Of a stretch of 64,000 nt of DNA, positions 49,400 to 63,897 are shown piece after piece. The translations under genes were made by a program, and so were the position numbers. Where the stretch lies: contig JBKDZW010000089.1 in the NCBI GenBank assembly GCA_047971685.1, positions 4,488-68,487 of the forward strand. The letters are read 5' to 3'. The notes under the pieces are model-generated. The model was not told the origin of the DNA. It saw only the letters and a program-made list of their open reading frames with translations, and ran no database searches. This DNA comes from Rhodoblastus sp. (GTDB taxonomy: Bacteria > Pseudomonadota > Alphaproteobacteria > Rhizobiales > Beijerinckiaceae). Within the stretch, counting starts at the first letter, position 1. The number at the start of each line of letters is the position of its first letter.

Positions 49400-50200
49400 T
49401 CAGGCCGCCTGCCCGCCACCGACGACGCCAGCGGCCTCGTCTTCCTCGTCCTTGCGGACTGCGGCCTTGTAGGCGGGGATGATGTCGTCGGGATGGCCCA
49501 CTTCGCGCACCACGCCGGCGTCGATCCAGATCACGCGGTCGCAAAGCGTGCGCAGATAGTCGAGCCCGTGCGAAACGACCAGAATCGTGCCGCGCTTGGA
49601 AAATTCGGCGATGAAATTCTCGCATTTCTGCGCGAAAGCCTCGTCGCCGACCGAAAGCGCCTCGTCGACGATCAGAATGTCGGCGTCGACATGGGCGCAG
49701 ATGGCGAAGGCAAGCCGCGCGATCATGCCGCTCGAATAGAGCTTCATCGGCTGATCGAAAAACATGCCGATCTCGGCGAAATCGGCGATCTGATCGAGCT
49801 TGGCGACGATCTCGCGACGCGAGAGCCCCAGGACCGCGCCGCCGATGATCGCATTTTCGCGGCCGGACAATGTGGCGTCGAAGCCCGAGCCAAGCGCCAG
49901 GATAGGCGCAATGCGGCCGCGGATTTCGACCGTGCCGGTGGTCGGGCGCGTGATGCCGCACAGGATCTGGAGAAGCGTCGTCTTGCCCGCGCCGTTGCGG
50001 CCGATGATGCCGACGCATTCGCCCTTCCTGATATCGAAGGTGATATCGCGCAGCACCCAATGCTTTCTGTAATAGGTCTTGGCCCAGCCAAACAGCGCCT
50101 GCATCAACTGGTCGTTGCGGCGCAGGTAGAGCTGGAAGGCCTTGCCTGCGTTGCGGCAGGAAATCGCCAGTTCGGAAGACATCGGGCGATCAGAGGACAT
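49400..50200 (-). CDS. ABC transporter ATP-binding protein (Wzt/KpsT/TagH-like polysaccharide/lipid export type)
   Basis: Walker A GRNGAGKTT. Signature YSSGMIARL. Walker B ILIVDEAL. The N-terminus …LFGWAKTYYRKHWVLRDITFDI… is typical of ABC-2 exporters. An alternative start lies at 50182. Confidence 0.9.
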   Translation of the reverse strand: MSSDRPMSSELAISCRNAGKAFQLYLRRNDQLMQALFGWAKTYYRKHWVLRDITFDIRKGECVGIIGRNGAGKTTLLQILCGITRPTTGTVEIRGRIAPILALGSGFDATLSGRENAIIGGAVLGLSRREIVAKLDQIADFAEIGMFFDQPMKLYSSGMIARLAFAICAHVDADILIVDEALSVGDEAFAQKCENFIAEFSKRGTILVVSHGLDYLRTLCDRVIWIDAGVVREVGHPDDIIPAYKAAVRKDEEDEAAGVVGGGQAA

Positions 50201-51023
50201 CGACGATCACCGATTTGTATTCCTTGAAGAAACCGTAGCCGAACAGAAAGACAGCGTAAGAGGCCACGAAGCACGCCAGATACATCCACGGATCGGGAAA
50301 GCGCTCGTAGATCACAAGATCGCGCAGCATGGCGATGTAATCGCCTACCAGGTTGAGCTTGATCCAGGGTTGCAGATTGGCCGGCAATTGTTCGATCTGG
50401 AAGAAAACCGGCGTGGCGAACATCATCAGCGGCACGATCGAAACCATGAGATGGGCGACGTCGCGGGTAAAAGCGCCCAGCGCCATCAGGAACCAGACGG
50501 TGCCGAGCATCAAAAGCATGAACGGCAGGATGATGAGGGGTACGAAAATCACCTTCCACGAAATGAAGTGGACGGTGGCCAGCCGCACGGCGAGCAGCGT
50601 GGCGAAGCTGATCGCGCCATAGACGAGCGCGCGGATGGTGGAGGTCCAGGCGATCGTCTCGGACGGAAAGATCGACTTCTTGATGAAATGGACGTGCTCG
50701 TGCAGCAGCGTGGGCGAGCGCGCCGCCAGTTCCGCGAACACGTTGAACAGGATGAGGCCGCAAAAACTTGCCGCTGCATAATCGTAGATCGGCACGCCGG
50801 CTGCGACCGTCGGCGTCGCAATGGTGAAGATCGCAGTATAGACCAGCAGCATGGCGAGCGGCGCGAAGATCGCCCAGATCCAGCCCAGGAAGGAATCGCG
50901 GAACCGCGAGGTCAGTTCGCGCCGCACGACCGCGCGGATCAGCTCCCGGTGGTGCCAGGCCCGCTCGAACGGCTCAGTCAGGAATATCGGCAAGTCCTGG
51001 ATTTTCAACGCTGTGATTTCCAA
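50190..51023 (-). CDS. ABC-2-type transporter permease (Wzm/KpsM-like)
   Basis: TTG start. …HRELIRAVVRRELTSRFRDSFLGWIWAIFAPL… matches the ABC-2 N-terminal signature. Six predicted TM segments. Confidence 0.87.
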   Translation of the reverse strand: MEITALKIQDLPIFLTEPFERAWHHRELIRAVVRRELTSRFRDSFLGWIWAIFAPLAMLLVYTAIFTIATPTVAAGVPIYDYAAASFCGLILFNVFAELAARSPTLLHEHVHFIKKSIFPSETIAWTSTIRALVYGAISFATLLAVRLATVHFISWKVIFVPLIILPFMLLMLGTVWFLMALGAFTRDVAHLMVSIVPLMMFATPVFFQIEQLPANLQPWIKLNLVGDYIAMLRDLVIYERFPDPWMYLACFVASYAVFLFGYGFFKEYKSVIVDVL

Positions 51024-51504: not shown

Positions 51505-51774
51505 GTGGACTCTGTTGCGCAAGGCGATGAATTCTACGCCCAGATCATTGAAGTGATTTCGAAAGAGGGCATGGTCGAGGCCGACAAGGTCAAGCCCGAA
51601 GCCACAATCGAAAGTCTCGATCTCAAGTCTATCGACATCGTCATGATTCTGACGGCGATCGAGGAAAAATTCGACGTCTACATTCCCATGGACGGGGCCT
51701 TTCAGGAGGCCAAGACCGTTCAGGATCTGATCGACGCGCTGGCGACCCATATCAACAAAGAGAAGAAAAACTGA
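51505..51774 (+). CDS. Acyl carrier protein (dedicated, non-housekeeping type)
   Basis: PP-binding pattern …IESLDLKSIDIVMILTAIEEKFDVYIP…, with Ser in the LKS position of the usual D-S-L motif. GTG start chosen at 51505 because there is no in-frame ATG. The stop is directly followed by the KAS ATG (TGAATG). Confidence 0.72.
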   Translation: MDSVAQGDEFYAQIIEVISKEGMVEADKVKPEATIESLDLKSIDIVMILTAIEEKFDVYIPMDGAFQEAKTVQDLIDALATHINKEKKN

Positions 51775-52992
51775 ATGACGCAGGGCCGTCGGGTCGTCAT
51801 CACCGGCATGGGCGCCGTCTCCGGCGCCGGCGTCGGATGGAAGCCGCTGTGGAACGCCGCCCGCGAGGGCGCGAGCGTGGTCCGCGCGCTTGAATTTGCG
51901 CGCGATTATCCCGGCCGCATTCGCATCGGCGCGCAGGTTCCCGATTTCGATGCGGCCAAGCTGATCGAGCGCTCCACGCTGATGTATTGCGATCCCTTCA
52001 CGCAATACGCGATTGTGGCCGCCGATCAGGCGGTGGCCGAAGCCGGTTTCGACAACAAAAATGTCGGCGGCGCCGATTGCGCGGTCATTCTGGGGTCGGG
52101 CATTGGCGGCATCCGCACCGTCGACGACGGTCTCTTCGCGCTCTACGCAAAGGGCGTGAAGCCGGAACCGCTGAGCATTCCCAAGCTGATCGCCAGCGCC
52201 GGCCCCTCGATGCTGTCCATCCGCTACGACGCGCACGGGCCGGTGTTTGCGGTGGCCAGCGCGTGTTCCTCCGCAAATCAGGCGATCGGCATGGGCATGC
52301 ACATGGTGCGCTCCGGCATGGCCGAGCGCGCCATTGTCGGCGGCGCCGAGGCGAGCCTTTCGGTCGGCACCCAGATGACCTGGGAAATGCTGCGTGTGCT
52401 GACGCCGGACAAATGCCGCCCCTTCTCCAAGGGCCGCAACGGCATGAGCATCGGCGACGGCGCGGCCATGTTCGTTCTGGAAACCGAGGAGGCGGCGATG
52501 GCGCGCGGCGCGCCGATCCTGTGCCGCCTCGTGGGCTACGGCACTTCGGCGGACGCGCGCGACCCGATCCGCCCCGACGCGGACGGCGCCTCGCTCGCCA
52601 TGCGCCGCGCCATCGCGGACGCCGATATTCCCGCCGACACGATCCAGTACGTCAATGCGCACGGCACGGCGACCGCGCTCAACGATCCCACGGAAGCCGA
52701 GGCCATGGGCCGCATTTTCGGCGACAGGCTGGCCGAGGTCGCGGTCTCCTCGACCAAGCCGGTGCACGGCCATGCGCTGGGAGCTGCCGGCGCGCTGGAG
52801 CTGGTCTGCACCATCATGGCGATGCGCGAAAACATTGCGCCGCCGACGATCAATTTCCTCGAACCCGACCCCAAATGCCCTGTGGATTGCGTGCCCAACC
52901 AGGCGCGCGCCATGACGATCCGCACGGCCATGACCAATTCCTTCGCCTTTGGCGGCGTGAACGCCTCGCTCGTCCTCCAGGCGGCGGACTGA
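51775..52992 (+). CDS. Beta-ketoacyl-ACP synthase (KAS I/II, FabF-like)
   Basis: …RRVVITGMGAVSG…. Active-site Cys context AVASACSSANQAIG. His motifs NAHGTAT and …KPVHGHALGAAG…. 405 aa. Confidence 0.92.
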   Translation: MTQGRRVVITGMGAVSGAGVGWKPLWNAAREGASVVRALEFARDYPGRIRIGAQVPDFDAAKLIERSTLMYCDPFTQYAIVAADQAVAEAGFDNKNVGGADCAVILGSGIGGIRTVDDGLFALYAKGVKPEPLSIPKLIASAGPSMLSIRYDAHGPVFAVASACSSANQAIGMGMHMVRSGMAERAIVGGAEASLSVGTQMTWEMLRVLTPDKCRPFSKGRNGMSIGDGAAMFVLETEEAAMARGAPILCRLVGYGTSADARDPIRPDADGASLAMRRAIADADIPADTIQYVNAHGTATALNDPTEAEAMGRIFGDRLAEVAVSSTKPVHGHALGAAGALELVCTIMAMRENIAPPTINFLEPDPKCPVDCVPNQARAMTIRTAMTNSFAFGGVNASLVLQAAD

Positions 52993-52999
52993 GGGCGTC

Positions 53000-53422
53000 A
53001 TGGGCGTGGAGAGGCCGCTCGGGCCGCAGGAAACGGCCCTCGGTCCGTTCGAGGCTCTGGCCGATCCCGCCGCCATCGCCGCATTCAAGGCGGCGCTTGA
53101 CGCCCCGGGCGCGGTTCTTGACGCATCCGGCGCCGAAATTCCGGCGACTTTCCCGATTGTCTGGCTCTCTCTCCCCGCGCTCAAGACGGCGCTGCGCGAA
53201 GCCGCCGGCGCCGGCCACCTGCCGGTCCACGAATCCCAGTCCTTCGATTATGCGCAGCCGCTCGTTTCCGGCGCCGCCTATCGTATGAGCGTTGCGGCGC
53301 AACGCGAGAACGCCCCCCCGCGCCTCGTGGTCGAGGCTAAGGTCGCAGACGCCTCCGGCGCGAAAATCGTGACCATGCGCGCTGCGCTGCGGCTCGTTCC
53401 GCTGGCGGAGGGCGGCGCATGA
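53000..53422 (+). CDS. Hotdog-fold protein, MaoC_dehydrat_N / HadA-like (non-catalytic dehydratase subunit candidate)
   Basis: 140 aa, with pattern …PATFPIVW…ESQSFDYAQPLVSGAAY…RLVVEAKVADASG…. 4-nt overlap with the following MaoC gene. The assignment is by fold-like pattern and context. Confidence 0.6.
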   Translation: MGVERPLGPQETALGPFEALADPAAIAAFKAALDAPGAVLDASGAEIPATFPIVWLSLPALKTALREAAGAGHLPVHESQSFDYAQPLVSGAAYRMSVAAQRENAPPRLVVEAKVADASGAKIVTMRAALRLVPLAEGGA

Positions 53423-53823
53423 AACTTCCGGTTTCGCGCGGCGACACGATGCCGGAAACCATTGTCGGCCCGTTCGACGCGGCTGCGGTCGCAGCCTATG
53501 CGGCCGCCTCCGGCGACGACAATCCCTTGCATCTCGACGCTGCGCTTGCCGCCCGCGCAGGATTTGCCGCTCCGCCAGTCCATGGCATGCGGCTGATGGC
53601 CGAAATCGCGCCTGCGCTTGCCGCCTGGCGGCCGGACATGGCGCTCAAGCGCCTGTCGGCCACTTTCGTCGAGCCGTTGCTGGTCGGCGAGGAGGCGCGT
53701 CTTACGGCCCGCGTTCTTCGCGCGGAAGGCGACGTTCTGATGCGCATCGCCATCCAGGGGCCGCGTCGCGGTCCAAGCGTTCTGGCGGAAGCCGTTCTGG
53801 TTGCAAGGGCGGGCGCGTCATGA
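53419..53823 (+). CDS. MaoC-like (R)-specific hydratase/dehydratase (HadB-like catalytic subunit candidate)
   Basis: Hydratase-2 type motif …ASGDDNPLHLDAALAARAGFAAPPVHGM…. 134 aa. ATGA overlaps on both sides. Confidence 0.8.
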   Translation: MKLPVSRGDTMPETIVGPFDAAAVAAYAAASGDDNPLHLDAALAARAGFAAPPVHGMRLMAEIAPALAAWRPDMALKRLSATFVEPLLVGEEARLTARVLRAEGDVLMRIAIQGPRRGPSVLAEAVLVARAGAS

Positions 53824-54617
53824 GTCCTGCGCCGCGCTCCATCCTGATTACCGGCGCCTCCAGCGGCATTGGCCGGGCGCTTGCCCGCGAATATGCCGCG
53901 CCCGGCGTACGGCTGACGCTGGTTGGCCGCGACGGCGCGCGGCTTTCGGCCGCCGCCTCGGAATGCCGCGTCAAGGGCGCGGAAGTCGAAATCGGCCAGG
54001 TGGATGTGCGCGACCGGCAGGGCATGCACGATTTCTTGCGCGCTGCGGATGCAAAAGCGCCGCTCGATCTGGTGGTCGCCAACGCCGGCGTCAACACCGG
54101 CCTGCCGGCAGGCGCGCTCGCCGAAGATCCGGAAGCTGTGCGCGGCATTTTCGCGATCAACCTCCTCGGCGTTTTCAACACGGTGGAACCCATGATCGAG
54201 CCGATGGCCGCGCGTGGAAAAGGCGTGATCGCGATGACCGGCTCGATCGCCGCCGTGCGCGGCCTGCCCTATTCGCCGTCCTATTGCGCGACCAAGGCGG
54301 CGGTCCATCTTTACGCGGAATCCTTGCGCGGAACGCTCGCCCGCAAGGGCGTGACGGTCAGCCTGATCGTGCCGGGCTTCGTCCATACCGCGCTCAACGA
54401 GAAGCTGACCTCGCCGAAGCCGCTCGCCATGACCGACGAGCGCGCCGCGCGCATCGTCCGGCGCGGGCTCGACCGGCGCAAGGCCAACATCGTCTTCCCG
54501 CGCCTGCTGTATTGGGGGGCGCGGCTGCTGACGGTCCTGCCGGCGCGGCTCGTCGATTTCTTCATGGTGCGCCAGTATGTCGACGTGCCGGTCACGCGCG
54601 AGAGGATGACGCCTTGA
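53820..54617 (+). CDS. Classical SDR oxidoreductase (ketoacyl-ACP reductase or 3-ketosphinganine/oxo-ceramide reductase candidate)
   Basis: TGASSGIGRALA Rossmann motif, NAG motif, and catalytic S…YCATK. Confidence 0.88.
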   Translation: MSPAPRSILITGASSGIGRALAREYAAPGVRLTLVGRDGARLSAAASECRVKGAEVEIGQVDVRDRQGMHDFLRAADAKAPLDLVVANAGVNTGLPAGALAEDPEAVRGIFAINLLGVFNTVEPMIEPMAARGKGVIAMTGSIAAVRGLPYSPSYCATKAAVHLYAESLRGTLARKGVTVSLIVPGFVHTALNEKLTSPKPLAMTDERAARIVRRGLDRRKANIVFPRLLYWGARLLTVLPARLVDFFMVRQYVDVPVTRERMTP

Positions 54618-55786
54618 ACGTCGCTCTCGACATCCTGCGTTGGGCCACGCTCGTTTTCTGCGCGATCTCGCTCGCCGGCCTCGTGCTGACCGTAGCGCTC
54701 GGACTGATCTCGCCGCTGATCCATGCGCGCCGCGCGCGCAGGTCCGATCTGCCGCCGATCAGCTTTATCCTGCCTATCAAGGACTGGGCGACAAGCTTCG
54801 GTCCTTCGCAATCCTCGGTCTTTGCGCTCGACTATCCCGAATATGACGTGACCGCGACGGCGGCGGAGGCCGAATCGCAGGCCGTAACGGCGATGCGCGA
54901 CATTATTGCCGCCCATCCCGACCGCCCGGCCAAACTGGTGCAATCGACGGCCAGCTTTGCCGTCAGCCCCAAGGTCAACAATATTTACAGCGCGATCGAG
55001 GAGGCCAGATACGATCTCATCGCCACCAAGGATTGCAACATCGTGTTGCCGCCGCGCACCGCGCGCATGGCGGTCGCCGCCATGACCGAGAACGTGGGGC
55101 TTGTGACCGCCATAACCGAGGCGCGCGGCGCGACCTCGCTGGCGGCGCGGATCGAGGCCTCGATCATGAACCAGTCGCATGCGCGCTATCTTCACGCAGC
55201 GGCCGCGCTGGGGCTCGGTTTCGGGCTCGGCAAGCTGATGATCTTCAAGCGCTCGGATCTGCACCGGGCCGGCGGTTTTGAAGCCATCGCCCATACCGTG
55301 GGCGAGGATTCGGCGACCGCCCATGCGCTTGCAGGCATCGGCCTGCGCACGGTCATCATCGGCGCGCCGATCTATCAGGTGCTGGGCGCGCGCAAATTCG
55401 GCGATATGCACAACCGTCAGATGCGCTGGGCCGTCATAAGGCGCCAGAACGAACTGGCCGGTTTTCTGGCCGAACCTTTCGGCCTGTCGGTCTTTGTGGC
55501 GCTGGCGGCGGCTTTTGCGGCGCCGCTTCTTGGCTGGAGCGCGCCGGGCGCCTTTCTGGCGACGCTCGTCTTCTGGTTTGCCTGCGAAACCGCGCTTGCC
55601 TTGGCGCGGGGCTGGGATGTATCGGTGAGCGCGCCCTTCGTCATGGTCGCCCGCGATGCGATGATGGCTTCGGTCTGGCTGCGCGCCTGGTTCACCAGGC
55701 GGGTCGTCTGGGCGGCCGAAGTTTACGAGGCGCAGCAGGAGCGTGGCTCGATGCCTGCCCCCGCCCAGAAAAGGAATGATGCGTGA
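54614..55786 (+). CDS. GT21-family glycosyltransferase (ceramide glucosyltransferase / UGCG-like)
   Basis: A TTG start overlaps the SDR stop (TTGA). Regions align by eye to human UGCG: LPPISFILPIK…FALDYPEYDV, SPKVNNIYSAIEEARYDLIATKDCNIVLPP, MTENVGLVTAI, GEDSATAHAL, and Q-x-RW (NRQMRWAVIRR). The 661-aa ORF in the track includes an out-of-frame leader. Confidence 0.8.
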   Translation: MNVALDILRWATLVFCAISLAGLVLTVALGLISPLIHARRARRSDLPPISFILPIKDWATSFGPSQSSVFALDYPEYDVTATAAEAESQAVTAMRDIIAAHPDRPAKLVQSTASFAVSPKVNNIYSAIEEARYDLIATKDCNIVLPPRTARMAVAAMTENVGLVTAITEARGATSLAARIEASIMNQSHARYLHAAAALGLGFGLGKLMIFKRSDLHRAGGFEAIAHTVGEDSATAHALAGIGLRTVIIGAPIYQVLGARKFGDMHNRQMRWAVIRRQNELAGFLAEPFGLSVFVALAAAFAAPLLGWSAPGAFLATLVFWFACETALALARGWDVSVSAPFVMVARDAMMASVWLRAWFTRRVVWAAEVYEAQQERGSMPAPAQKRNDA

Positions 55787-57060
55787 CGGCGCAAGGATTG
55801 CTCGTCGGATTGATCGACATTGCGCTCACGCTATGCGTTCTCGGCATGGCGGCGATTGGCGCGAGCCTGCTCGTTCTGGTGGTTCGCTTTCTCTACGACC
55901 AGGCGCGCGGCGCAGGCGACGGTTCACGCGACGTCGCGCCGCTGGCGGAAGCCGACCTGCCGCATGTCGTCCTGCAAATTCCCGTTTTCAACGAGCCGCG
56001 CGTGGTGATCGGCGCCCTGCGCGCCGCCGCCGCGCTCGATTGGCCGCGCGAAAAACTGCACCTTCAATTGCTCGACGATTCCACCGACGAGACCACCGAG
56101 CGCGCCGCCGAACTGATCGCGGAATTGCGCGCCGAGGGCCACGACGTGCGCCATGTGCGCCGCGAGGACCGCACGGGCTTCAAGGCCGGCGCGTGCGCCG
56201 CCGGTCTGGCGCTCGACGATTCGCCGTTCGTGGCGATGCTCGATGTCGATTTCCGCCCGCCGGCCGACTGGCTGCGCAAGGCCATTCCCGTCATCGTCGG
56301 CGATCCCAAGGCCGGCTTCGTGCAGGCGCGCTGCGAATTCGCCAATTACCGCAAAAACTGGCTGACGCGCGTACAGGGCCTGATCCTCGACGGCCATTTC
56401 ATGATCGAGCAGCGCACCCGCGCCAATCTCGGCTGGCTGTTCCAGTTCAACGGCACGGGCGGCATATGGCGGCGCGCAGCCATCGATTCGGTCGGCGGCT
56501 GGCAGGATTATTCGCTGACCGAAGACCTCGACCTCACCATCCGCACCGCGCTTGCCGGCTGGCACGGCCGGTTCATTTCCGAGCCCGCCAGTCCCGGCCA
56601 GATGCCCGAGGGCATGCGCGACTGGCGCCGCCAGCAGCGCCGCTGGTCCAACGGCTTCATTCAGGTCGCCCAGCGGACGCTCGGACCGATCTGGACCGCG
56701 CCATGGAGCCTGGCCGAACGCCTGTCCTCGATCATGCTCGTGCTGCATCAGGTGTTCTTTCCGTTGTGCGCGGGCGCAATCATCCTCATCATTCTCGGCA
56801 TTCTGGCGCGAGGAATCTCGATTGCAGCCTATCTGCCGCTGTTCGGCCTGATCTTCCTGATGGTCTGCGCGGTCGTGATCGGCATGACCCTGCCGCCCTC
56901 TCTCGCGCTCAAGCGTGGGTCGTTCTGGCGCTATCTCGCCACCATGGCCATGCTGCCGCCGCTGTTCATCTATCTGGCCGTCGCCAATGCGCCGAAAATC
57001 ATCCAGACCGCGCGCGGGCGGCAGGAGCATTTCAAGCGCACGCCCAAGAAAGAGCATTAA
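55783..57060 (+). CDS. Family 2 glycosyltransferase, processive type (CslA / MGlcDG-synthase-like), membrane-embedded
   Basis: A GTG start overlaps the GT21 stop (GTGA). Motifs: …VVLQIPVFNE…, LLDDSTD, MLDVDF, TEDLDL and QQRRW (QxxRW). N-terminal and multiple C-terminal TM segments. Confidence 0.87.
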   Translation: MTAQGLLVGLIDIALTLCVLGMAAIGASLLVLVVRFLYDQARGAGDGSRDVAPLAEADLPHVVLQIPVFNEPRVVIGALRAAAALDWPREKLHLQLLDDSTDETTERAAELIAELRAEGHDVRHVRREDRTGFKAGACAAGLALDDSPFVAMLDVDFRPPADWLRKAIPVIVGDPKAGFVQARCEFANYRKNWLTRVQGLILDGHFMIEQRTRANLGWLFQFNGTGGIWRRAAIDSVGGWQDYSLTEDLDLTIRTALAGWHGRFISEPASPGQMPEGMRDWRRQQRRWSNGFIQVAQRTLGPIWTAPWSLAERLSSIMLVLHQVFFPLCAGAIILIILGILARGISIAAYLPLFGLIFLMVCAVVIGMTLPPSLALKRGSFWRYLATMAMLPPLFIYLAVANAPKIIQTARGRQEHFKRTPKKEH

Positions 57061-57455: not shown

Positions 57456-58907
57456 ATGGACGACAAACTTGCATTCGCCTCGGCGGCCACGCTCGCAAAA
57501 CTGGTGCGCGAAAAAAAGGTCGGGGCGGTCGAACTTCTGGAATTCTTTCTTGCGCGCGTCGAACGCCACAATCCCACTCTCAACGCCATCATCGTCCAGC
57601 GCGCGGACGCCGCCAGAAAAGAGGCTGCGGCCTGCGACGCCATGACCGCGAAAGGCCAGTCGATGGGGGCGCTGCACGGCGTGCCCATGACGGTCAAGGA
57701 ATCCTTCGATGTCGCGGGCACGCCGTCCACCTGGGGATTGACGGCGTTCCGCGACAATATCGCGGCCAGGGACGCGCTTTCCGTCGAGCGGTTGAAGGGC
57801 GCTGGCGCGGTCGTTTTCGGCAAGACCAATGTGCCGGCCTGGCTTGCCGACTGGCAATCGTTCAACCCGATCTACGGCACGACCAACAATCCCTGGAATG
57901 TCGGGCGCACGCCGGGCGGTTCTTCAGGCGGCAGCGCGGCGGCGCTGGCGGCGGGACTCACGGGGCTGGAGATAGGCAGCGACATCGGCGCCTCCATCCG
58001 CGATCCCGCCCATTATTGCGGGGTTTACGGCCACAAGCCGACCTTCGACATCTGCCCGCGCGACGGCCATCTCCTGCCCGGCGCCTATGCCCACGGCGAT
58101 ATTTCCGTGATCGGCCCGCTGGCGCGCTCGGCCTACGATCTGGAGACCGCGCTCGACATTATCGCAGGGCCCAATGCGCTCGAGGCCACGGGGCTGCGCC
58201 TGGAATTGCCGCGCTCGAAAAAGACGAAACTGTCGGAGTTTCGCGTCGCCGTCATGCCTTCGGCCGACACCGCGCCGGTCGATGGCGCCGTGCGTGAAAA
58301 AATCGAGGAGCTTGCCGGTTTTCTGGAAGGCCAGGGCGCCCATGTCGATCGCGCCGCGCGCCCCGTCGATCCAGCCGCCGCGCACGAGACCTACATCATG
58401 CTCCTGCGCTCGGCGACCAGCGGCGCGCTCGATGACGCGGTTTACGAAAAATTGCTGGCTGCGCGAAAAGAGGTTGCAGGGCGCAACGATTATTTCGCCT
58501 GGCATGCGCGCGCAAACACGATGGGCCATCGCGAATGGCTGCGCTGGAACAATGCCCGCGCGAAAATGCGGCTCGACTGGCAGGCGTTTTTTACCCGCTT
58601 CGATCTCCTGCTCTGCCCGACCGCCACGACAACCGCGTTTCCGCACATGCAGACCGGCGAGCGCTGGGAACGCATGATTTCGGTCGACGGCAAGGACCAG
58701 CCGACGACGACGCAGCTTTTCTGGGCGGGCTATTCCGGCATGGTCGATCTGCCATCGACCATCGCGCCGCTCGGGCTGGCGAAAGACGGCCTGCCGGTCG
58801 GCGTGCAGATCGTGGCGCCGGCCTATCGGGATCACAGCGCCATCCGCTTCGCGCAATTGCTGGAAGACCGGTATCGCGCGTTCGAGCCGCCGCCGGGGTT
58901 TGCATAA
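57456..58907 (+). CDS. Amidase-signature (AS) family amidase
   Basis: AS motif GGSSGGSAAALAAG, catalytic Lys context VPMTVKESF, and …GSDIGASIRDPA…. RBS GGGAGGA. Confidence 0.9.
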   Translation: MDDKLAFASAATLAKLVREKKVGAVELLEFFLARVERHNPTLNAIIVQRADAARKEAAACDAMTAKGQSMGALHGVPMTVKESFDVAGTPSTWGLTAFRDNIAARDALSVERLKGAGAVVFGKTNVPAWLADWQSFNPIYGTTNNPWNVGRTPGGSSGGSAAALAAGLTGLEIGSDIGASIRDPAHYCGVYGHKPTFDICPRDGHLLPGAYAHGDISVIGPLARSAYDLETALDIIAGPNALEATGLRLELPRSKKTKLSEFRVAVMPSADTAPVDGAVREKIEELAGFLEGQGAHVDRAARPVDPAAAHETYIMLLRSATSGALDDAVYEKLLAARKEVAGRNDYFAWHARANTMGHREWLRWNNARAKMRLDWQAFFTRFDLLLCPTATTTAFPHMQTGERWERMISVDGKDQPTTTQLFWAGYSGMVDLPSTIAPLGLAKDGLPVGVQIVAPAYRDHSAIRFAQLLEDRYRAFEPPPGFA

Positions 58908-58939: not shown

Positions 58940-59626
58940 TCAGAGCGGCTTGTCGCCGGGCTTGTCGTCCTTGGCATAGCCGGTGCCGAACACATCGTCC
59001 CAATAAGGGCAGCTCACGCCATAGCCGCGGTCGGGATCGCGGAAATGATGCAGGAGGTGCGCACGGCGCAGGATCTGCTCGACCCTGGTGTGCGGCGGGC
59101 GGTGATGAATGTGGTAGTGGATCTCGTCGTAGAGCACGTAGCCGACGAGGAAGCCGGCCGTGATCGAATAGGACAGAGGCTCCGGAAACAGCAGGGTGAT
59201 CACGACATAAGCGAGCGCCATCAGCGGCACGCTCATCAGCAGGGGCATGACGAGGCGCAGGGGATCGCTCGGATGCACGTGATGCACGCCGTGCAGCAGG
59301 AAGTGGATGCGCTCGCCGATCCTGCCGGGAAATTCCGTGTGAAAGACCCAGCGATGGAAGACATATTCGCAGAGCGTCCAGGCGATATAGCCGAAGATCA
59401 GGCAGGCGATGGTGATGAACGCCGGTTGCCCCCTGGCGCCGAGCCAGCCGAGCCAGGCGGCGAAGGGAAGATAGAACAGCGGCGCCCACCAGGGTACGCG
59501 CGAAAGCAGGTCCAGCACACGATTGTCGAAAATGCGCGGCGAGGCCGCCAGAAGCTCGGCCTTGCTCATGCCCTGCGTCGACATATGCGCGTATGGGTCG
59601 CGCGCGGTTTGCGTCGTGTCGCTCAT
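58940..59626 (-). CDS. Fatty acid 2-hydroxylase (FA2H/Scs7-like, fatty-acid hydroxylase superfamily) lacking a cytochrome b5 domain
   Basis: His boxes and flanks align by eye with human FA2H: WTLCEYVFHRWVFH, HFLLHGVHHVHPSDPLRLVMP, GYVLYDEIHYHIHH and LRRAHLLHHF…GYGVS…WDDVFGT. Confidence 0.85.
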   Translation of the reverse strand: MSDTTQTARDPYAHMSTQGMSKAELLAASPRIFDNRVLDLLSRVPWWAPLFYLPFAAWLGWLGARGQPAFITIACLIFGYIAWTLCEYVFHRWVFHTEFPGRIGERIHFLLHGVHHVHPSDPLRLVMPLLMSVPLMALAYVVITLLFPEPLSYSITAGFLVGYVLYDEIHYHIHHRPPHTRVEQILRRAHLLHHFRDPDRGYGVSCPYWDDVFGTGYAKDDKPGDKPL

Positions 59627-59636
59627 GCCAGTCTCC

Positions 59637-60647
59637 TCACGCCGCCGCAGTCGGCGCGCTTGTCGCCGGCGCCGGCGTACTTGCCGCCGGCGCCGCGCCG
59701 AGATTCTCGGTGCGCGACATCAGCGAATATCGCGGGTTGAAGATGAAATCGAAGAACAGTTTCACCCAGGATTTGTGGGCGTGCAGGTTATTGTAGAATT
59801 CCGGCGCCGTGGCCTTCAACCTGGGCAGCAGGGCCCAGGGGATTTCCTGAAAATCGTGATGTTCGTTGTGATAGCCGATGTTGAGCGCGAAGAAGTTCAG
59901 GGGGCCGTAGTAATCGAACGTGCCCTGCCCCGGCCAGGCCGCGTAATGCTCCTGAATCCAGCGCGCGCCCAGCGGATGCAGGCCGACCGAGAACCAGAAG
60001 GAAGCAAACAGGTAAAACAGCGCATTGCCGCCGAGGAAATACCAGACCGCGATGTCGAAGACCGCGATGACGGCGAAATTGACGTAGGTCCACAGGCCCC
60101 AGATCGGCACCGTGCCCTTGAGGCGGTAGATGCGGGTGAGCTGCATCACGGGGAAGAAGAACAGCCACAGGGCTTTGCGCCACCAGACATTGCCGACGAG
60201 TTTTGCCTCCCAGCCGGAGGGCACGTCGGCGTCGTAATCGTAGCTGGACAGATGCGAATGGTGCTTCACATGGTAGCAGCGAAAGCCCATGGCGGTCGGA
60301 AAGGCGTTGGGCAGATCGGCCAGAATCGCATTCCATTTGTTGAGCGTGGGGCTCTGGAACACGGCGTTGTGGATGGAATCGTGAATGATCACGAACATGG
60401 CGTGATTGGCGAATGCGCCGATTCCATAGGCGAGCAGCAGGGTCGCCCACCAATAGGACATGCCGAGATAGCCCATCCAGGCGGCGATCGCGACTTGCAG
60501 GACGAATACGCCGGCGGTGATCCAGAAGGTTCTGATGTCGCGCACCATGAGCTGGGCCACTTCCGGATGGGCGGCCAGGATCGCCTTGCGGCGATCGACA
60601 TGGCTTCGGTCGACGCCGAGAGCGGTAACGGGAACGCTCATGTTCAT
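59637..60647 (-). CDS. Sphingolipid Delta4-desaturase (DEGS1/Des1-like; Lipid_DES N-terminal region plus FA desaturase domain)
   Basis: Collinear by eye with human DEGS1: HVDRRKAILAAHPEVAQLM, NHAMFVIIHDSIHNAVF, FRCYHVKHHSHL, GLHPLGARWIQEHY, YYGPLNFFALNIGYHNEHHDFQEIP and SWVKLFFDFIFNPRYSLMSR. It carries an extra Ala/Pro/Thr-rich C-terminal tail. Confidence 0.9.
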   Translation of the reverse strand: MNMSVPVTALGVDRSHVDRRKAILAAHPEVAQLMVRDIRTFWITAGVFVLQVAIAAWMGYLGMSYWWATLLLAYGIGAFANHAMFVIIHDSIHNAVFQSPTLNKWNAILADLPNAFPTAMGFRCYHVKHHSHLSSYDYDADVPSGWEAKLVGNVWWRKALWLFFFPVMQLTRIYRLKGTVPIWGLWTYVNFAVIAVFDIAVWYFLGGNALFYLFASFWFSVGLHPLGARWIQEHYAAWPGQGTFDYYGPLNFFALNIGYHNEHHDFQEIPWALLPRLKATAPEFYNNLHAHKSWVKLFFDFIFNPRYSLMSRTENLGAAPAASTPAPATSAPTAAA

Positions 60648-60663: not shown

Positions 60664-61863
60664 TCACCCGGCCTGCGCCGCGCCCGTCAGGGCTGCTTGC
60701 GGCGCGCCGTCGAGGCGCTTCTCGTAGATACGATGGATTTTGTCGATTTTAGCGCCACTCATCTCAATGGGTCTGCGCATGCCGGCGTTATCTTCCAGAA
60801 CCCAGCCGAATTCCACTTGATCTAACGCAACTTTGCGGCTCCGCAGGCGTAATTCTTCTATCATGGTCATGATGACGATGCCGCCGCGTGCGCTCTTATG
60901 TAGCGCCTTCGTCATGCCGAACAGGGCGAGGCGGCCGGATTTATAGTCGCGTTTGCGAATGCGGGCGACCACCTTCGGCAGGCCGAACGGAAAAAGCCTG
61001 CCGTCGAGATCGGCCACGATCTCGTGCAGATTGGGCACGACAATTCCGAAGGCGACGGGCTCGCCGTCGATTTCGGTCACAAAGCCCCAATCCTCGGTCA
61101 TCAGGAATTTCAGGCTGTCGGCCATCGACTTGAATTCTTCGCGCGTGATCGGGACAAAGCCCCAGTTTCCGGCCCAGGCGTCGTTGAAAAGGCGCGTCAT
61201 CAGATCGACCTCGCTGTCGAGGTCGTTCATGCGCAGGGCCCGGAATTTCAGGCGTTCGCGCCATTCCGGGCGGTTGAGCAGCAAAGGCTCGGCGTTGCGG
61301 TCCGTCGCGGAGACATCGTAGCGGTAGGAAATGAGGTCGCGCGCCTTGGCGTAGCCCAGCGCCTCGACATGGGCGCTCAGATAGGGCGGATGCCAGGGAA
61401 TGAAGACCATGGGCGTGGCCTCGAAACCCTGGACCAGAAGGCCGCATTCGGCGTTGACCGAGGGCGAGAACGGCCCGTGGACAACCTCTGCGCCCTCGCG
61501 CTTCAGCCAGGCTTCCGCAGCCGCCAGCAGCGCCGCCACGACCTCGCGGTCGTCGACCGCATCGAGCGAGCCGAACTGATAGCGGGAAGCTAGATTGGGG
61601 CGGACCTCGTTATAGACCTGCGCCTCGATGCGGCCAACGGTCGCGCCGTCTCGTTTGGCCAGAAAGGCCTGCGAGCGCACGAGCCTGTAATGCGGATTGA
61701 GCTTGTGGGCGTACATGGCCCAGCGCTCGGCGTCGAGCGAGGGCGAAAAGCCCGGCCAGCCGCGATAGAGCCGGCGCGGCGCGCGGCAAAACTCCATGAA
61801 GGCGCGAAGGCCCGAGACGGGCGATATCTCGACGGCGTTCCGATGAACTGATGCTGCGGACAT
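60664..61863 (-). CDS. Large GNAT-like N-acyltransferase (bacterial ceramide synthase bCerS-like candidate)
   Basis: ~400 aa, with …AWLKREGAEVVHGPFSPSVNAECGLLVQGFE…PPYLSAHVEALGYAKARDL… and a C-terminal GNAT-like half. The start at ATG 61863 is inferred (alternatives at 61875 and 61899). The functional call rests on family resemblance recalled from the literature plus adjacency to the Spt-like gene. Confidence 0.68.
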   Translation of the reverse strand: MSAASVHRNAVEISPVSGLRAFMEFCRAPRRLYRGWPGFSPSLDAERWAMYAHKLNPHYRLVRSQAFLAKRDGATVGRIEAQVYNEVRPNLASRYQFGSLDAVDDREVVAALLAAAEAWLKREGAEVVHGPFSPSVNAECGLLVQGFEATPMVFIPWHPPYLSAHVEALGYAKARDLISYRYDVSATDRNAEPLLLNRPEWRERLKFRALRMNDLDSEVDLMTRLFNDAWAGNWGFVPITREEFKSMADSLKFLMTEDWGFVTEIDGEPVAFGIVVPNLHEIVADLDGRLFPFGLPKVVARIRKRDYKSGRLALFGMTKALHKSARGGIVIMTMIEELRLRSRKVALDQVEFGWVLEDNAGMRRPIEMSGAKIDKIHRIYEKRLDGAPQAALTGAAQAG

Positions 61864-61935
61864 GGCGCCGCCCATAGCACGGACGCAGGCCGGAACCAAC
61901 GCCGGCCTGCGCGAATTGGAGCGGTTCCAGACGGG

Positions 61936-63273
61936 TTAGAAAGCCGCCGCCGGCTGATCGCCCGGCAGGACGAGACCGCGCGGCGGCTCGACGACCGGCC
62001 GGTCGACGATCAATTGCACGACCTGGCGGATATCGTCCTCGGTGTGGCTGGCCGAGATGAAGAAGCGCAGGCGCGGCTTGTCCTTGGGCACGCCTACCTG
62101 CACGACGGGCGGCACATAGACGCCGTGCGCCAGCAGGTGCTGGGAGACGGCCATGGTCTCCCACACCGAATTGAACAGGATCGGCACGACGGCGCGCCCG
62201 ATCGCGGGGCCGGTGTCGAGGCCGGCGGCCTGCGCCGTGTTGCGCAGGAATTCGGCGTTATGCGCGAGTTTGGCGATGCGCCAGGATTCCGACTGCATCA
62301 GGTCCAGCGCCTTGGAGGCGGCAGCCGTGATGACCGGCGACAGGCCGACCGAATAGACGAAGCCCGGCAGGGTGAATTTCATCCAGTCGATGAGCAATTG
62401 CTTGCCGGCGACGAAACCGCCGCAGGAGGCGAAACTCTTCGACAAGGTGCCGACGATGAGATCGACGCGGGCGGGGTCGACGCCGCAATATTCGCACAGG
62501 CCCGCGCCGCGCTTGCCGAGAACGCCGATGGAATGGGCCTCGTCGACCAGAAGCCACACGCCGTGCTTTTCCTTGATGTCGCAGATGCGCGCCAGATCGA
62601 CCGTGTCGCCGTCCATCGAATAGAGGCTTTCGACGACGATCAGGCAATTGCGGTATTTCTCGCGGTGCTCGGTGAGCAATTGGTCGAGATGGTCGAAATC
62701 GTTGTGGCGGAATACGATCTGGGCCGCATCCGCATTGCGCGCGCCGGTCGCCACGCTGTTGTGCGACAATTCGTCGAGGAAGATCGCGTCGCGCTTGGCC
62801 ATCAGATGGGTGATGACGGTCAGATTGGTCAGATAGCCCGAGACCAGCGACAGCGTCGCTTCGGTTCCCAGAAACTTCGCGAGATTTTCCTCGAATTTCT
62901 GGTGGGTCGAACGCTCGCCGCCGACAAGGCGGGACGCGAGCGCGCCCACGCCCAGCGTGTCGATGGCCCGGTGGGCGGCCGCCTTCACTTCCGGATGCTC
63001 GGCAAGCCCCAGATAATCGTAATTGGCGAAAGAGACGTAATGCCCGCCGTTCCGGCCCTCGATCTCCGCCTTGAGCGTGTCGGTCGGCGCGAAGAACGGA
63101 TTGCCGTGCTCGTCGAGGATGGCTTTGCCGGCGAGCCTGTAGCGCCGGAACGCATAATCGGAGAGGCTTTGGTGTTTTTTCGCCACGCAGAAAGGTTCCG
63201 GTTGCGGGACGGTCCGCCCCTGATTGCGTCGCGCAGCGCGCTGGGCCGCCTGCCGACGCTGCCCCTTTACCAT
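61936..63273 (-). CDS. PLP-dependent alpha-oxoamine synthase, serine palmitoyltransferase (Spt)-like
   Basis: AOS family motifs …FANYDYLGL…, …SHNS…, …VDEAHSIG… and PLP-lysine GTLSKSF. BioF/KBL/ALAS alternatives are considered. The operon context with DEGS-, FA2H- and bCerS-like genes favours Spt. Confidence 0.8.
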   Translation of the reverse strand: MVKGQRRQAAQRAARRNQGRTVPQPEPFCVAKKHQSLSDYAFRRYRLAGKAILDEHGNPFFAPTDTLKAEIEGRNGGHYVSFANYDYLGLAEHPEVKAAAHRAIDTLGVGALASRLVGGERSTHQKFEENLAKFLGTEATLSLVSGYLTNLTVITHLMAKRDAIFLDELSHNSVATGARNADAAQIVFRHNDFDHLDQLLTEHREKYRNCLIVVESLYSMDGDTVDLARICDIKEKHGVWLLVDEAHSIGVLGKRGAGLCEYCGVDPARVDLIVGTLSKSFASCGGFVAGKQLLIDWMKFTLPGFVYSVGLSPVITAAASKALDLMQSESWRIAKLAHNAEFLRNTAQAAGLDTGPAIGRAVVPILFNSVWETMAVSQHLLAHGVYVPPVVQVGVPKDKPRLRFFISASHTEDDIRQVVQLIVDRPVVEPPRGLVLPGDQPAAAF

Positions 63274-63393
63274 TAACCCGCAGGTCTGCGCCAGTAGCAG
63301 GCAGACCGCCGAAGCTCCGCCAGCTAAACCATTGTCGCCGAAACAGTCAATTCAGGGCCGGGGCGGGGGCCCCGCCAGGGCTTGAACGGGCGT

Positions 63394-63461
63394 CCCCTCC
63401 CCCCATATTGTCATTGTGTGGCGCGCCGCAACGGGCGCTGCAAGACGAGGCGCCTGAGGGG
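63394..63461 (+). promoter_or_regulatory. Candidate 5'-UTR RNA thermometer (anti-SD CCCCUCCCC … SD GAGGGG) upstream of hsp20
   Basis: A C-rich run at 63394-63404 can pair with the putative SD GAGGGG (63456-63461). GC-rich self-complementary sequence lies between them. This is analogous in logic to ROSE elements, but I could not match the ROSE consensus. Confidence 0.3.
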
Positions 63462-63468
63462 CTTCCAC

Positions 63469-63897
63469 ATGTCGCGTACGCCTACCCTGAATTCTCCGTT
63501 CCTGCTGGGATTCGAGACCATCGAGCGTGCGCTTGATCGCGTGACGCGGGCCGCAAGCGACGGCTATCCGCCCTATAATATCGAGCGCCTGTCGCGTACC
63601 GAGAACGAGCCGGAGCGCCTGCGCATCACGCTGGCGGTCGCCGGTTTCAACCGCGAACAACTCGATATTACCGTGGAGGAGAACCAATTGGTCATTCGCG
63701 GACGCCAGCAGGAGGAGCGGGAGCGCAATTTTTTGCACCGCGGCATAGCCGCGCGGCAGTTCCAGCGCGCTTTTCTGCTTGCCGAGGGCATGCAGGTCCA
63801 AAGCGCCGATCTGTCCAACGGACTTCTTTCGGTCGACCTCGTCCGGCCCGAGCCGGAGCGGGTCATCCGCAAGATAGATATTTCCTCGCGCGACTGA
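63469..63897 (+). CDS. Small heat-shock protein (Hsp20/alpha-crystallin, IbpA-like)
   Basis: Start at MSRTPTLNSPFLLGF…. Alpha-crystallin domain …YPPYNIERLSENE…ITLAVAGF…LDITVEENQLVIRG…F…L…V…A.L.NGLL.V.L. Confidence 0.9.
   Translation: MSRTPTLNSPFLLGFETIERALDRVTRAASDGYPPYNIERLSRTENEPERLRITLAVAGFNREQLDITVEENQLVIRGRQQEERERNFLHRGIAARQFQRAFLLAEGMQVQSADLSNGLLSVDLVRPEPERVIRKIDISSRD

Follow-up and report, generated by a model that had tools for sequence, protein, structure and literature searches.

The window analysed here is the whole stretch of 64,000 nucleotides taken from contig JBKDZW010000089.1, which belongs to a metagenome-assembled genome (MAG) of Rhodoblastus, a soil and freshwater genus of the family Beijerinckiaceae in the order Hyphomicrobiales. 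On its reverse strand, an open reading frame (ORF; 59637..60647, ATG to TGA) encodes a membrane di-iron desaturase/hydroxylase of 336 amino acids that, as judged by its sequence, is a genuine full-length bacterial member of the DEGS family (the Delta4-desaturase/C4-hydroxylase family). The gene is the third of four in an operon headed by an alpha-oxoamine synthase (AOS) resembling serine palmitoyltransferase (Spt). The family as such is known; the window gene represents a real and uncharacterised bacterial branch of it, and its operon belongs to a type that is conserved but has not been described so far. We consider it likely that the enzyme acts at C4/C5 of a ceramide-like sphingolipid. Within this reading, a pure Delta4-desaturase falls somewhat short of an even chance, and a hydroxylase or bifunctional enzyme is somewhat less probable again.

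Comparison by BLASTP with human DEGS1 (the reference used is an exact match to NP_003667.1/DEGS1_HUMAN) gave 35% identity over 306 residues with 8 gapped positions (E 5e-61). The two proteins are collinear, and a similarity of this degree between the sequences is far above chance. Both Pfam domains of the family were recovered, FA_desaturase (PF00487) with 82.5 bits against a cut-off of 29.7, and Lipid_DES (PF08557) with 30.9 bits against a cut-off of 23. The latter match covers residues 15–38 (SHVDRRKAILAAHPEVAQLMVRDI; 60534..60605, reverse strand), and the same domain is found in nearly all near homologues of the window protein. An earlier reading of this DNA, made from the letters alone (hereafter the sequence-only reading), had claimed end-to-end homology to DEGS, and the identity, E-value and two domains confirm it; the Lipid_DES match, the lack of which that reading had taken to speak against its claim, is significant. 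The motifs it had listed are all present in the order given, namely the N-terminal HVDRRKAILAAHPEVAQLM (residues 16–34), the three histidine boxes, and the SW-K--FDF motif, which here reads SWVKLFFDF (residues 293–301). On the reverse strand the boxes are HDSIH(N) at residues 89–94 (HDSIH, 60369..60383), HVKHH at residues 126–130 (60258..60272) and HNEHH(DF) at residues 260–266 (HNEHH, 59856..59870), which corresponds to the expected succession of HX3H, HX2HH and HX2HH. An alignment of 22 bacterial sequences with 11 vertebrate DES1/DES2 sequences showed eleven invariant histidines, listed as H16, H82, H89, H93, H126, H129, H130, H224, H234 and H260/263/264. In the Lipid_DES region, R19 and P28 are, together with H16, invariant from bacteria to vertebrates. 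The Ala/Pro/Thr-rich C-terminal tail that had also been noted is there as well (LGAAPAASTPAPATSAPTAAA, 21 amino acids, residues 316–336; 59640..59702, reverse strand). It is absent or different in the homologues and appears disordered in the AlphaFold 2 (AF2) model, with a predicted local distance difference test (pLDDT) score below 50.

The AF2 model of the DEGS homologue, for which the alignment contained 33 sequences, is all-helical with a pLDDT of 83.8. In the hydropathy profile the hydrophobic helices form two pairs, of which the first flanks histidine box 1 and the second precedes an LHP motif. The best fold match of the model was a chain of the Chlamydomonas Orf2971-FtsHi complex (1.2e-4), followed by the alkane monooxygenase AlkB and then, weakly, by the stearoyl-CoA desaturase SCD1. 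A sequence search of the PDB with the DEGS protein gave nothing at E ≤ 1, and since no solved DEGS structure is found there, the comparison can be made at the level of the fold only. As modelled, the protein has the fold of a membrane di-iron oxygenase/desaturase with four predicted transmembrane helices.

The four genes of the operon are co-directional, in the order AOS, tandem-GNAT protein, DEGS and FA2H-like hydroxylase, with gaps of 72, 16 and 10 nucleotides. The first gene (61936..63273, reverse strand) encodes the Spt-like AOS of 445 amino acids (Aminotran_1_2, 182 bits), whose amino-acid substrate would most likely be serine. At its N-terminus a basic extension of about 45–60 residues (MVKGQRRQAAQRAARRNQGR...) precedes the region that aligns to solved Spt and 2-amino-3-ketobutyrate CoA ligase (KBL). 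The second gene (60664..61863, reverse strand) encodes a putative tandem-GNAT N-acyltransferase, which we call X411, of 399 amino acids when read from the ATG; the ORF extends to a TTG at 61899. X411 had no match above threshold in Pfam or NCBIfam and is 100% identical to the NCBI entry 'hypothetical protein ACK5JM_08090 [Rhodoblastus sp.]', which comes from a MAG. Its assignment is a fold match: Foldseek matched its AF2 model (pLDDT 85, predicted TM-score 0.84) to tandem-GNAT acetyltransferases, mycothiol synthase, N-myristoyltransferase and FemX at E-values down to 2e-11. A verrucomicrobial homologue of X411 matches the Pfam GNAT domain Acetyltransf_1 at 1.7e-11. Judged by its modelled fold, X411 is a candidate ceramide synthase, possibly of an undescribed ceramide-synthase family, and it may be a more novel protein than the DEGS homologue itself. 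The last gene (58940..59626, reverse strand) starts 10 nucleotides after DEGS with an AGGAG ribosome-binding site and encodes a hydroxylase of 228 amino acids with the Scs7/FA2H catalytic domain (FA_hydroxylase, PF04116, 64.5 bits). Its residues 32–223 align to residues 185–377 of yeast Scs7 (4zr1) with an E-value of 5.5e-30. A cytochrome b5 domain is lacking, as judged both by Pfam and by the alignment, which is confined to the catalytic part of Scs7. A scan for promoters and terminators between 51 and 64 kb found nothing that exceeds the shuffled expectation.

With regard to distribution, when one genome per GTDB species was scanned with a sequence pattern, at least 586 bacterial genomes proved to encode a relative of the DEGS protein, and a profile search of the full library returned 753 clusters (50% identity) at E ≤ 1e-30. 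Bacterial members are automatically labelled 'sphingolipid delta-4 desaturase' or '4-desaturase/C4-monooxygenase' by the Joint Genome Institute (JGI), and 'fatty acid desaturase' by NCBI. The view that a DEGS-like gene is a rarity in bacteria did therefore not hold. The carriers include Beijerinckiaceae (Rhodoblastus, Methylocapsa, Methylocella, Methylovirgula and Beijerinckia), Methylocystis, Verrucomicrobiota (Chthoniobacterales, Ca. Udaeobacter), Acidobacteria of group 1, Chitinophagales, Saprospiraceae and one Actinomycetes MAG. A tblastn search of the plasmids in PLSDB gave no match.

The partner genes travel with DEGS across these phyla. Neighbourhoods were counted in the 80 best loci, which were searched with the window proteins within 10 kb of the DEGS gene. 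An AOS was found in 68 of them, X411 in 66 and the FA_hydroxylase protein in 39; the 12 loci without AOS are mostly truncated contigs or belong to Chitinophagales. Homologues of proteins encoded on the opposite strand of the window (described below) were less frequent, with the short-chain dehydrogenase/reductase (SDR) near DEGS in 32 loci and the GT2 glycosyltransferase beside the DEGS operon in 20, while the GT21 glycosyltransferase adjoins DEGS only in Rhodoblastus and Methylocapsa acidiphila. The gene order is AOS–X411–DEGS–(hydroxylase) in Alphaproteobacteria and DEGS–hydroxylase–AOS–X411 in Verrucomicrobiota, Acidobacteria and Saprospiraceae, and this difference indicates that the linkage has been retained despite rearrangement. 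In the cultured type strain Methylocapsa acidiphila B2 (L033:7190..12998), AOS, X411, DEGS and GT21 are consecutive on the same strand and the hydroxylase is convergent. In an uncultured Verrucomicrobiae MAG (L049:7037..19182), the DEGS–hydroxylase–AOS–GNAT core is accompanied by two CDP-alcohol phosphatidyltransferases, a GT2, a sulfotransferase, a methyltransferase, a radical-SAM protein and an SDR; this points to sphingolipids with head groups of the phospho, sulfo or glyco type in Verrucomicrobiota of soils. The operon described as 'spt' in the sequence-only reading is thus indeed headed by an Spt-like AOS and its linkage is kept across phyla, while the AOS itself scores below the Spt cut-offs (see below).

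Further evidence comes from fusion proteins. A protein of 737 amino acids from a Deltaproteobacteria MAG (MCC6812083.1; P0455/P0530) joins GT21, Lipid_DES and FA_desaturase, and a metagenomic protein of 515 amino acids (P0423) joins FA_hydroxylase, Lipid_DES and FA_desaturase. The three families that are neighbours in the window are thereby linked to one another through fusions, which we regard as strong independent evidence that they share one lipid substrate. Other relatives of DEGS (P0462, P0471, P0412, P0502, P0450 and P0459) were seen to carry N-terminal extensions of 130–260 amino acids without a Pfam domain.

A neighbour-joining tree of 222 sequences, unrooted and with 50%-identity representatives that are mostly metagenomic proteins, separated the 80 bacterial proteins from the genome scan plus the window protein from the clade of vertebrate DES1/DES2 with a bootstrap of 63 out of 100. 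One choanoflagellate and one yeast sequence share the 40%-identity cluster of the vertebrates, and the more divergent groups of the tree include at least one deltaproteobacterial sequence. As sampled here, the bacterial DEGS proteins are diverse and appear nested in no eukaryotic group. The phylogeny that had been proposed as a check on horizontal transfer thus yields a split between bacteria and vertebrates, and no conclusion on the direction of transfer is drawn from it.

Several observations weigh against an action at C4/C5 of a ceramide-like sphingolipid. The DEGS gene of one Chitinophagales genome has only unrelated genes around it, which may mean that the pathway genes are unclustered in that genome, and in the literature we found no lipid data for any carrier of the cluster, sphingolipids of Rhodoblastus, Methylocapsa, Methylocella and Chthoniobacter included. 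The other observations concern the residues that distinguish DES1 from DES2, a precedent from Caulobacter and the scores of the AOS, and are best considered together with the explanations they favour.

The best supported of these explanations is that the enzyme is mainly a sphingolipid C4-hydroxylase, or bifunctional like DES2, and that its product is a trihydroxy base of the phytoceramide type instead of a 4E-unsaturated one. We regard this as possible, with odds clearly below even. The DEGS family holds both activities, and many bacterial members bear the JGI name '4-desaturase/C4-monooxygenase'. Seven alignment positions separate vertebrate DES1 (21 sequences) from vertebrate DES2 (24 sequences); at three of them the bacterial clade carries the residue of DES2, at none that of DES1 and at the remaining four another one, so the sequence does not favour a desaturase-only activity. 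The DES2-like positions include histidine box 1, which is H-D as in vertebrate DES2 and not H-E as in DES1. Moreover, the cluster contains no C4-hydroxylase of the Sur2 type, its sole FA_hydroxylase protein being nearest to the acyl 2-hydroxylase Scs7. On the other hand, histidine box 3 reads HNEHH as in DES1, unlike the H[MV]EHH of DES2, and the discriminating positions may mirror the history of the vertebrate lineage and not the chemistry. These positions, few and mixed, are not decisive and lean to DES2 if anything, and the sequence cannot say whether the enzyme desaturates, hydroxylates or does both. Of the Delta4-desaturase claimed in the sequence-only reading, the homology and the operon context are therefore upheld, and the Delta4 specificity is not something that can be read from the sequence.

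It is considerably less probable, and in our view unlikely, that the enzyme acts elsewhere on the sphingolipid, either by hydroxylating or desaturating the amide-linked acyl chain or by a distal desaturation of the long-chain base. In membrane desaturases a few substitutions readily change the regiochemistry, as is established for the FAD2/FAH12 families. Caulobacter offers a precedent: the amide-linked acyl chain of its sphingolipids is reportedly hydroxylated by CC_0202, a 'DesA family desaturase/hydroxylase' (PMC11324152). An enzyme of the desaturase fold may therefore belong to a sphingolipid pathway of bacteria without having the long-chain base as its target. Against this stands the collinearity with DEGS over the full length, including the family-specific N-terminal Lipid_DES. 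Furthermore, an Scs7-like acyl 2-hydroxylase is encoded immediately downstream and is elsewhere fused to DEGS, so that acyl hydroxylation already has a candidate enzyme.

Slightly less probable again is that the cluster does not concern sphingolipids at all, but that the AOS uses another amino acid or acyl donor (as a BioF/KBL-like enzyme, in a cysteate-type sulfonolipid pathway or for some other aminolipid) and that the DEGS-like enzyme acts on the resulting lipid. The AOS scored under the cut-offs of all three NCBIfam Spt models (294, 286 and 206 bits against 500, 640 and 670), and its top NCBIfam score was to the BioF model (350 bits, cut-off 426). The label 'spt' is consequently derived from the context and from the active-site loop. 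Among solved structures, its best relatives were the serine palmitoyltransferases of Sphingobacterium (3a2b/8guh, 209.6 bits), with E. coli KBL close behind (206.7 bits) and the cysteate acyltransferase lower (159 bits). However, the loop of the AOS that holds the lysine for pyridoxal phosphate, GTLSKSFASCGGFVAG, aligns without a gap to GTFSKSLASLGGFVAG of Spt, whereas KBL requires a gap. Three ceramide-specific enzymes of eukaryotes (DEGS, Scs7/FA2H and ceramide glucosyltransferase) also have homologues in the cluster, and the fusion proteins point to a shared ceramide-like substrate. In addition, synthases of Methylocystaceae have been counted as SPT; the study in question (Sci Adv 2023) lists this family among the SPT carriers and mentions no desaturase (PMC10411912).

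The idea that the gene came recently from a eukaryote, or that it is a contaminant of the assembly, and has no role in the bacterium, is suggested by the facts that the DEGS family was first defined in eukaryotes and that the window comes from a MAG, but this explanation has a negligible probability and was rejected on codon usage, on the embedding of the gene in a bacterial operon with gaps of 10–16 nucleotides and on the broad bacterial spread, which includes complete genomes of cultured Methylocapsa polymorpha RX1 and Methylocystis spp., besides the identity of just 35% to animal DEGS and the clustering of the bacterial sequences apart from the vertebrate/choanoflagellate/yeast group. The GC content at third codon positions is 0.816 for DEGS and 0.796 for LysRS, with similar values for other genes of the window; this agreement with a housekeeping gene indicates that the gene is native and not a contaminant. 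The best genome loci are those of Rhodoblastus MAGs, at 91–95% identity, and there is no sign of contamination or recent arrival.

Enzymes for further steps on a ceramide-like lipid may be encoded by a second operon on the opposite strand (51505..57060, forward), in which seven genes are translationally coupled with four start/stop overlaps of 4 nucleotides. All on the forward strand, these genes encode an acyl carrier protein (ACP; 51505..51774), a beta-ketoacyl-ACP synthase II (KAS II; 51775..52992), an unannotated protein of 140 amino acids (53000..53422), a MaoC dehydratase (53419..53823), a classical SDR (53820..54617; adh_short, 147.7 bits), a GT21 glycosyltransferase homologous to ceramide glucosyltransferase (54614..55786; Glyco_transf_21, 144.7 bits) and a cellulose-synthase-like GT2 glycosyltransferase (55783..57060; Glyco_trans_2_3, 95.3 bits). 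The SDR is a candidate 3-ketosphinganine (or 3-ketoacyl) reductase; its relatives in the PDB are generic SDRs only, and to call it a ketosphinganine reductase is a guess on our part. The GT21 starts with a TTG that overlaps the stop codon of the SDR and matches the ceramide glucosyltransferase 26qf in the PDB at an E-value of 6e-30. An identification of the GT21 as HpnI was considered and rejected, its 143.9 bits being below half of the cut-off of 310 bits. The start of the GT2 overlaps the stop of the GT21 by 4 nucleotides, and its PDB matches are of the BcsA type (2e-17). With the GT21 counted, four eukaryotic sphingolipid enzymes (SPT, DEGS, FA2H/Scs7 and UGCG) have homologues at the locus.

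Upstream of the SDR and of the glycosyltransferase pair, the genes for the ACP, the KAS II, the 140-amino-acid protein and the MaoC dehydratase have the appearance of a module for acyl-chain elongation. The operon as a whole resembles an elongation module of the type II fatty acid synthesis kind, without an enoyl reductase, coupled to two glycosyltransferases. The four-gene module is found beside the DEGS operon in about 15–18 Beijerinckiaceae loci, and its adjacency suggests a tie to the sphingolipid pathway. Without the GT21, the opposite-strand operon recurs beside the DEGS operon in approximately 15–20 Beijerinckiaceae loci (Methylovirgula, Methylocella and others).

For the likely action at C4/C5 of a ceramide-like sphingolipid, we infer the following scheme, including the identity of the substrate, the regiochemistry and the electron donor. 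The four operon genes are taken to be co-transcribed. From an amino acid, most probably serine, and a long acyl thioester, the AOS would form a 3-keto long-chain base. The 3-keto group would then be reduced, perhaps by the SDR encoded nearby, and X411 would N-acylate the base, in either order, which would yield dihydroceramide. The DEGS homologue is pictured as an integral-membrane, O2-dependent di-iron enzyme, in which the three histidine boxes and the additional conserved histidines would hold the metal centre on the cytoplasmic side. With O2 and two electrons, it would abstract a hydrogen at C4 of the long-chain base, after which either loss of the C5 hydrogen would produce the 4E double bond of a ceramide or rebound of the hydroxyl would produce the 4-hydroxy base of a phytoceramide. 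The electron donor is assumed to be a soluble ferredoxin or flavodoxin, because no cytochrome b5 is fused or adjacent. The Scs7-like enzyme would 2-hydroxylate the amide-linked acyl chain, and GT21 and GT2 would add sugars, so that the end product may be a cerebroside-like glycosphingolipid.

According to a 2023 review, bacteria make dihydroceramide as opposed to ceramide (PMC10191378), and the statement of the sequence-only reading that 4E-unsaturated bases are considered rare or absent in bacteria agrees with the literature. Current accounts of bacterial sphingolipids thus end at dihydroceramide, and the bacterial DEGS clade goes against this common generalisation. From its linkage, the final, 'eukaryote-defining' steps of ceramide synthesis would be expected to occur in bacteria as well. 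Our literature searches turned up neither a characterised bacterial DEGS protein nor a description of sphingolipids from these taxa that are 4-unsaturated or DEGS-dependent. Contrary to the textbooks, ceramides of the eukaryotic style are probably made by some bacteria. A much wider proposal, which we put forward tentatively and consider rather unlikely in its entirety, is that free-living Beijerinckiaceae and their relatives, Verrucomicrobiota and Acidobacteria make true 4-unsaturated (or 4-hydroxy), 2-hydroxyacyl ceramides and cerebroside-like glycosphingolipids by means of bacterial counterparts of DEGS, FA2H and ceramide glucosyltransferase together with a tandem-GNAT ceramide synthase that had so far escaped recognition, and that the bacterial DEGS clade is an old lineage which bears on the origins of the eukaryotic enzymes and is not a recent borrowing. 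If bacteria do carry out the final steps of ceramide synthesis, bacterial lipid biochemistry would gain a missing enzyme class and a candidate new family of ceramide synthases, bacteria might be a source of the unsaturated or trihydroxy ceramides of soils and peat, and the counterparts of three eukaryotic sphingolipid enzymes would be united at one bacterial locus. This prediction lends itself to direct testing, as the operon is present in cultured strains, namely Methylocapsa acidiphila B2, M. aurea KYG, M. palsarum NE2, M. polymorpha RX1 and Methylocystis rosea SV97.

Some further genes surround the lipid operons. Immediately upstream, between 44674 and 51023 on the reverse strand, lie an ABC-2 exporter pair (permease 50190..51023, ATPase 49400..50200), two unannotated ORFs and a GT4 glycosyltransferase of 841 amino acids; this group is conserved only in the Rhodoblastus locus L001 and could be a polysaccharide or glycolipid export system. 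An amidase-signature enzyme (57456..58907, forward strand; NCBIfam PRK06170, 612 bits) converges on the DEGS operon, the two stop codons being only about 32 nucleotides apart. In this analysis its conservation is limited to Rhodoblastus, and to see a ceramidase-like enzyme in it would be pure speculation. At the end of the window, an Hsp20/alpha-crystallin gene (63382..63897, forward strand) diverges from the Spt-like gene.

In comparison with the eukaryotic DEGS1/DES1 and DEGS2/DES2, the window protein has the same architecture of PF08557 plus PF00487 and collinear boxes in a chain of similar length (336 versus 323 amino acids). It differs from DEGS1 in that the N-terminal Gly2 myristoylation site is missing (MNMS... 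versus MGSR...), and from both eukaryotic enzymes in its additional non-conserved Ala/Pro/Thr tail, in its combination of a DES2-like H-D in box 1 with a DES1-like HNEHH in box 3, and in being encoded in a bacterial operon that shows no cytochrome b5 partner. The hydroxylase shares the FA_hydroxylase domain with Scs7/FA2H, but at 228 amino acids it is without their N-terminal cytochrome b5. The GT21 shares the Glyco_transf_21 domain with UGCG, although it is also HpnI-like; a ceramide-like acceptor is predicted for it.

Compared with the bacterial pathway of Caulobacter and Sphingomonas (Spt, AcpR, AasR, bCerS/CC_1154 and CerR/CC_1164), the window cluster likewise starts with an alpha-oxoamine synthase and has an ACP gene nearby. 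A further likeness is the soluble GNAT-type N-acyltransferase, to which X411 is compared by its modelled fold; that a GNAT replaces the eukaryotic ceramide synthase of the Lag1 type is known from Caulobacter (PMC11087976, PMC11324152). Caulobacter has a four-gene operon of aasR, cerR, acpR and spt (PMC10411912, PMC11324152), whereas the order in the window is AOS, GNAT, DEGS and FA2H. Among the NCBIfam Spt models, it was the alphaproteobacterial one that the window AOS matched least (206 bits), and the window cluster is without an epimerase-type CerR. Finally, the window has a DEGS gene, whereas none is reported for the Caulobacter-type pathway in the literature we found.

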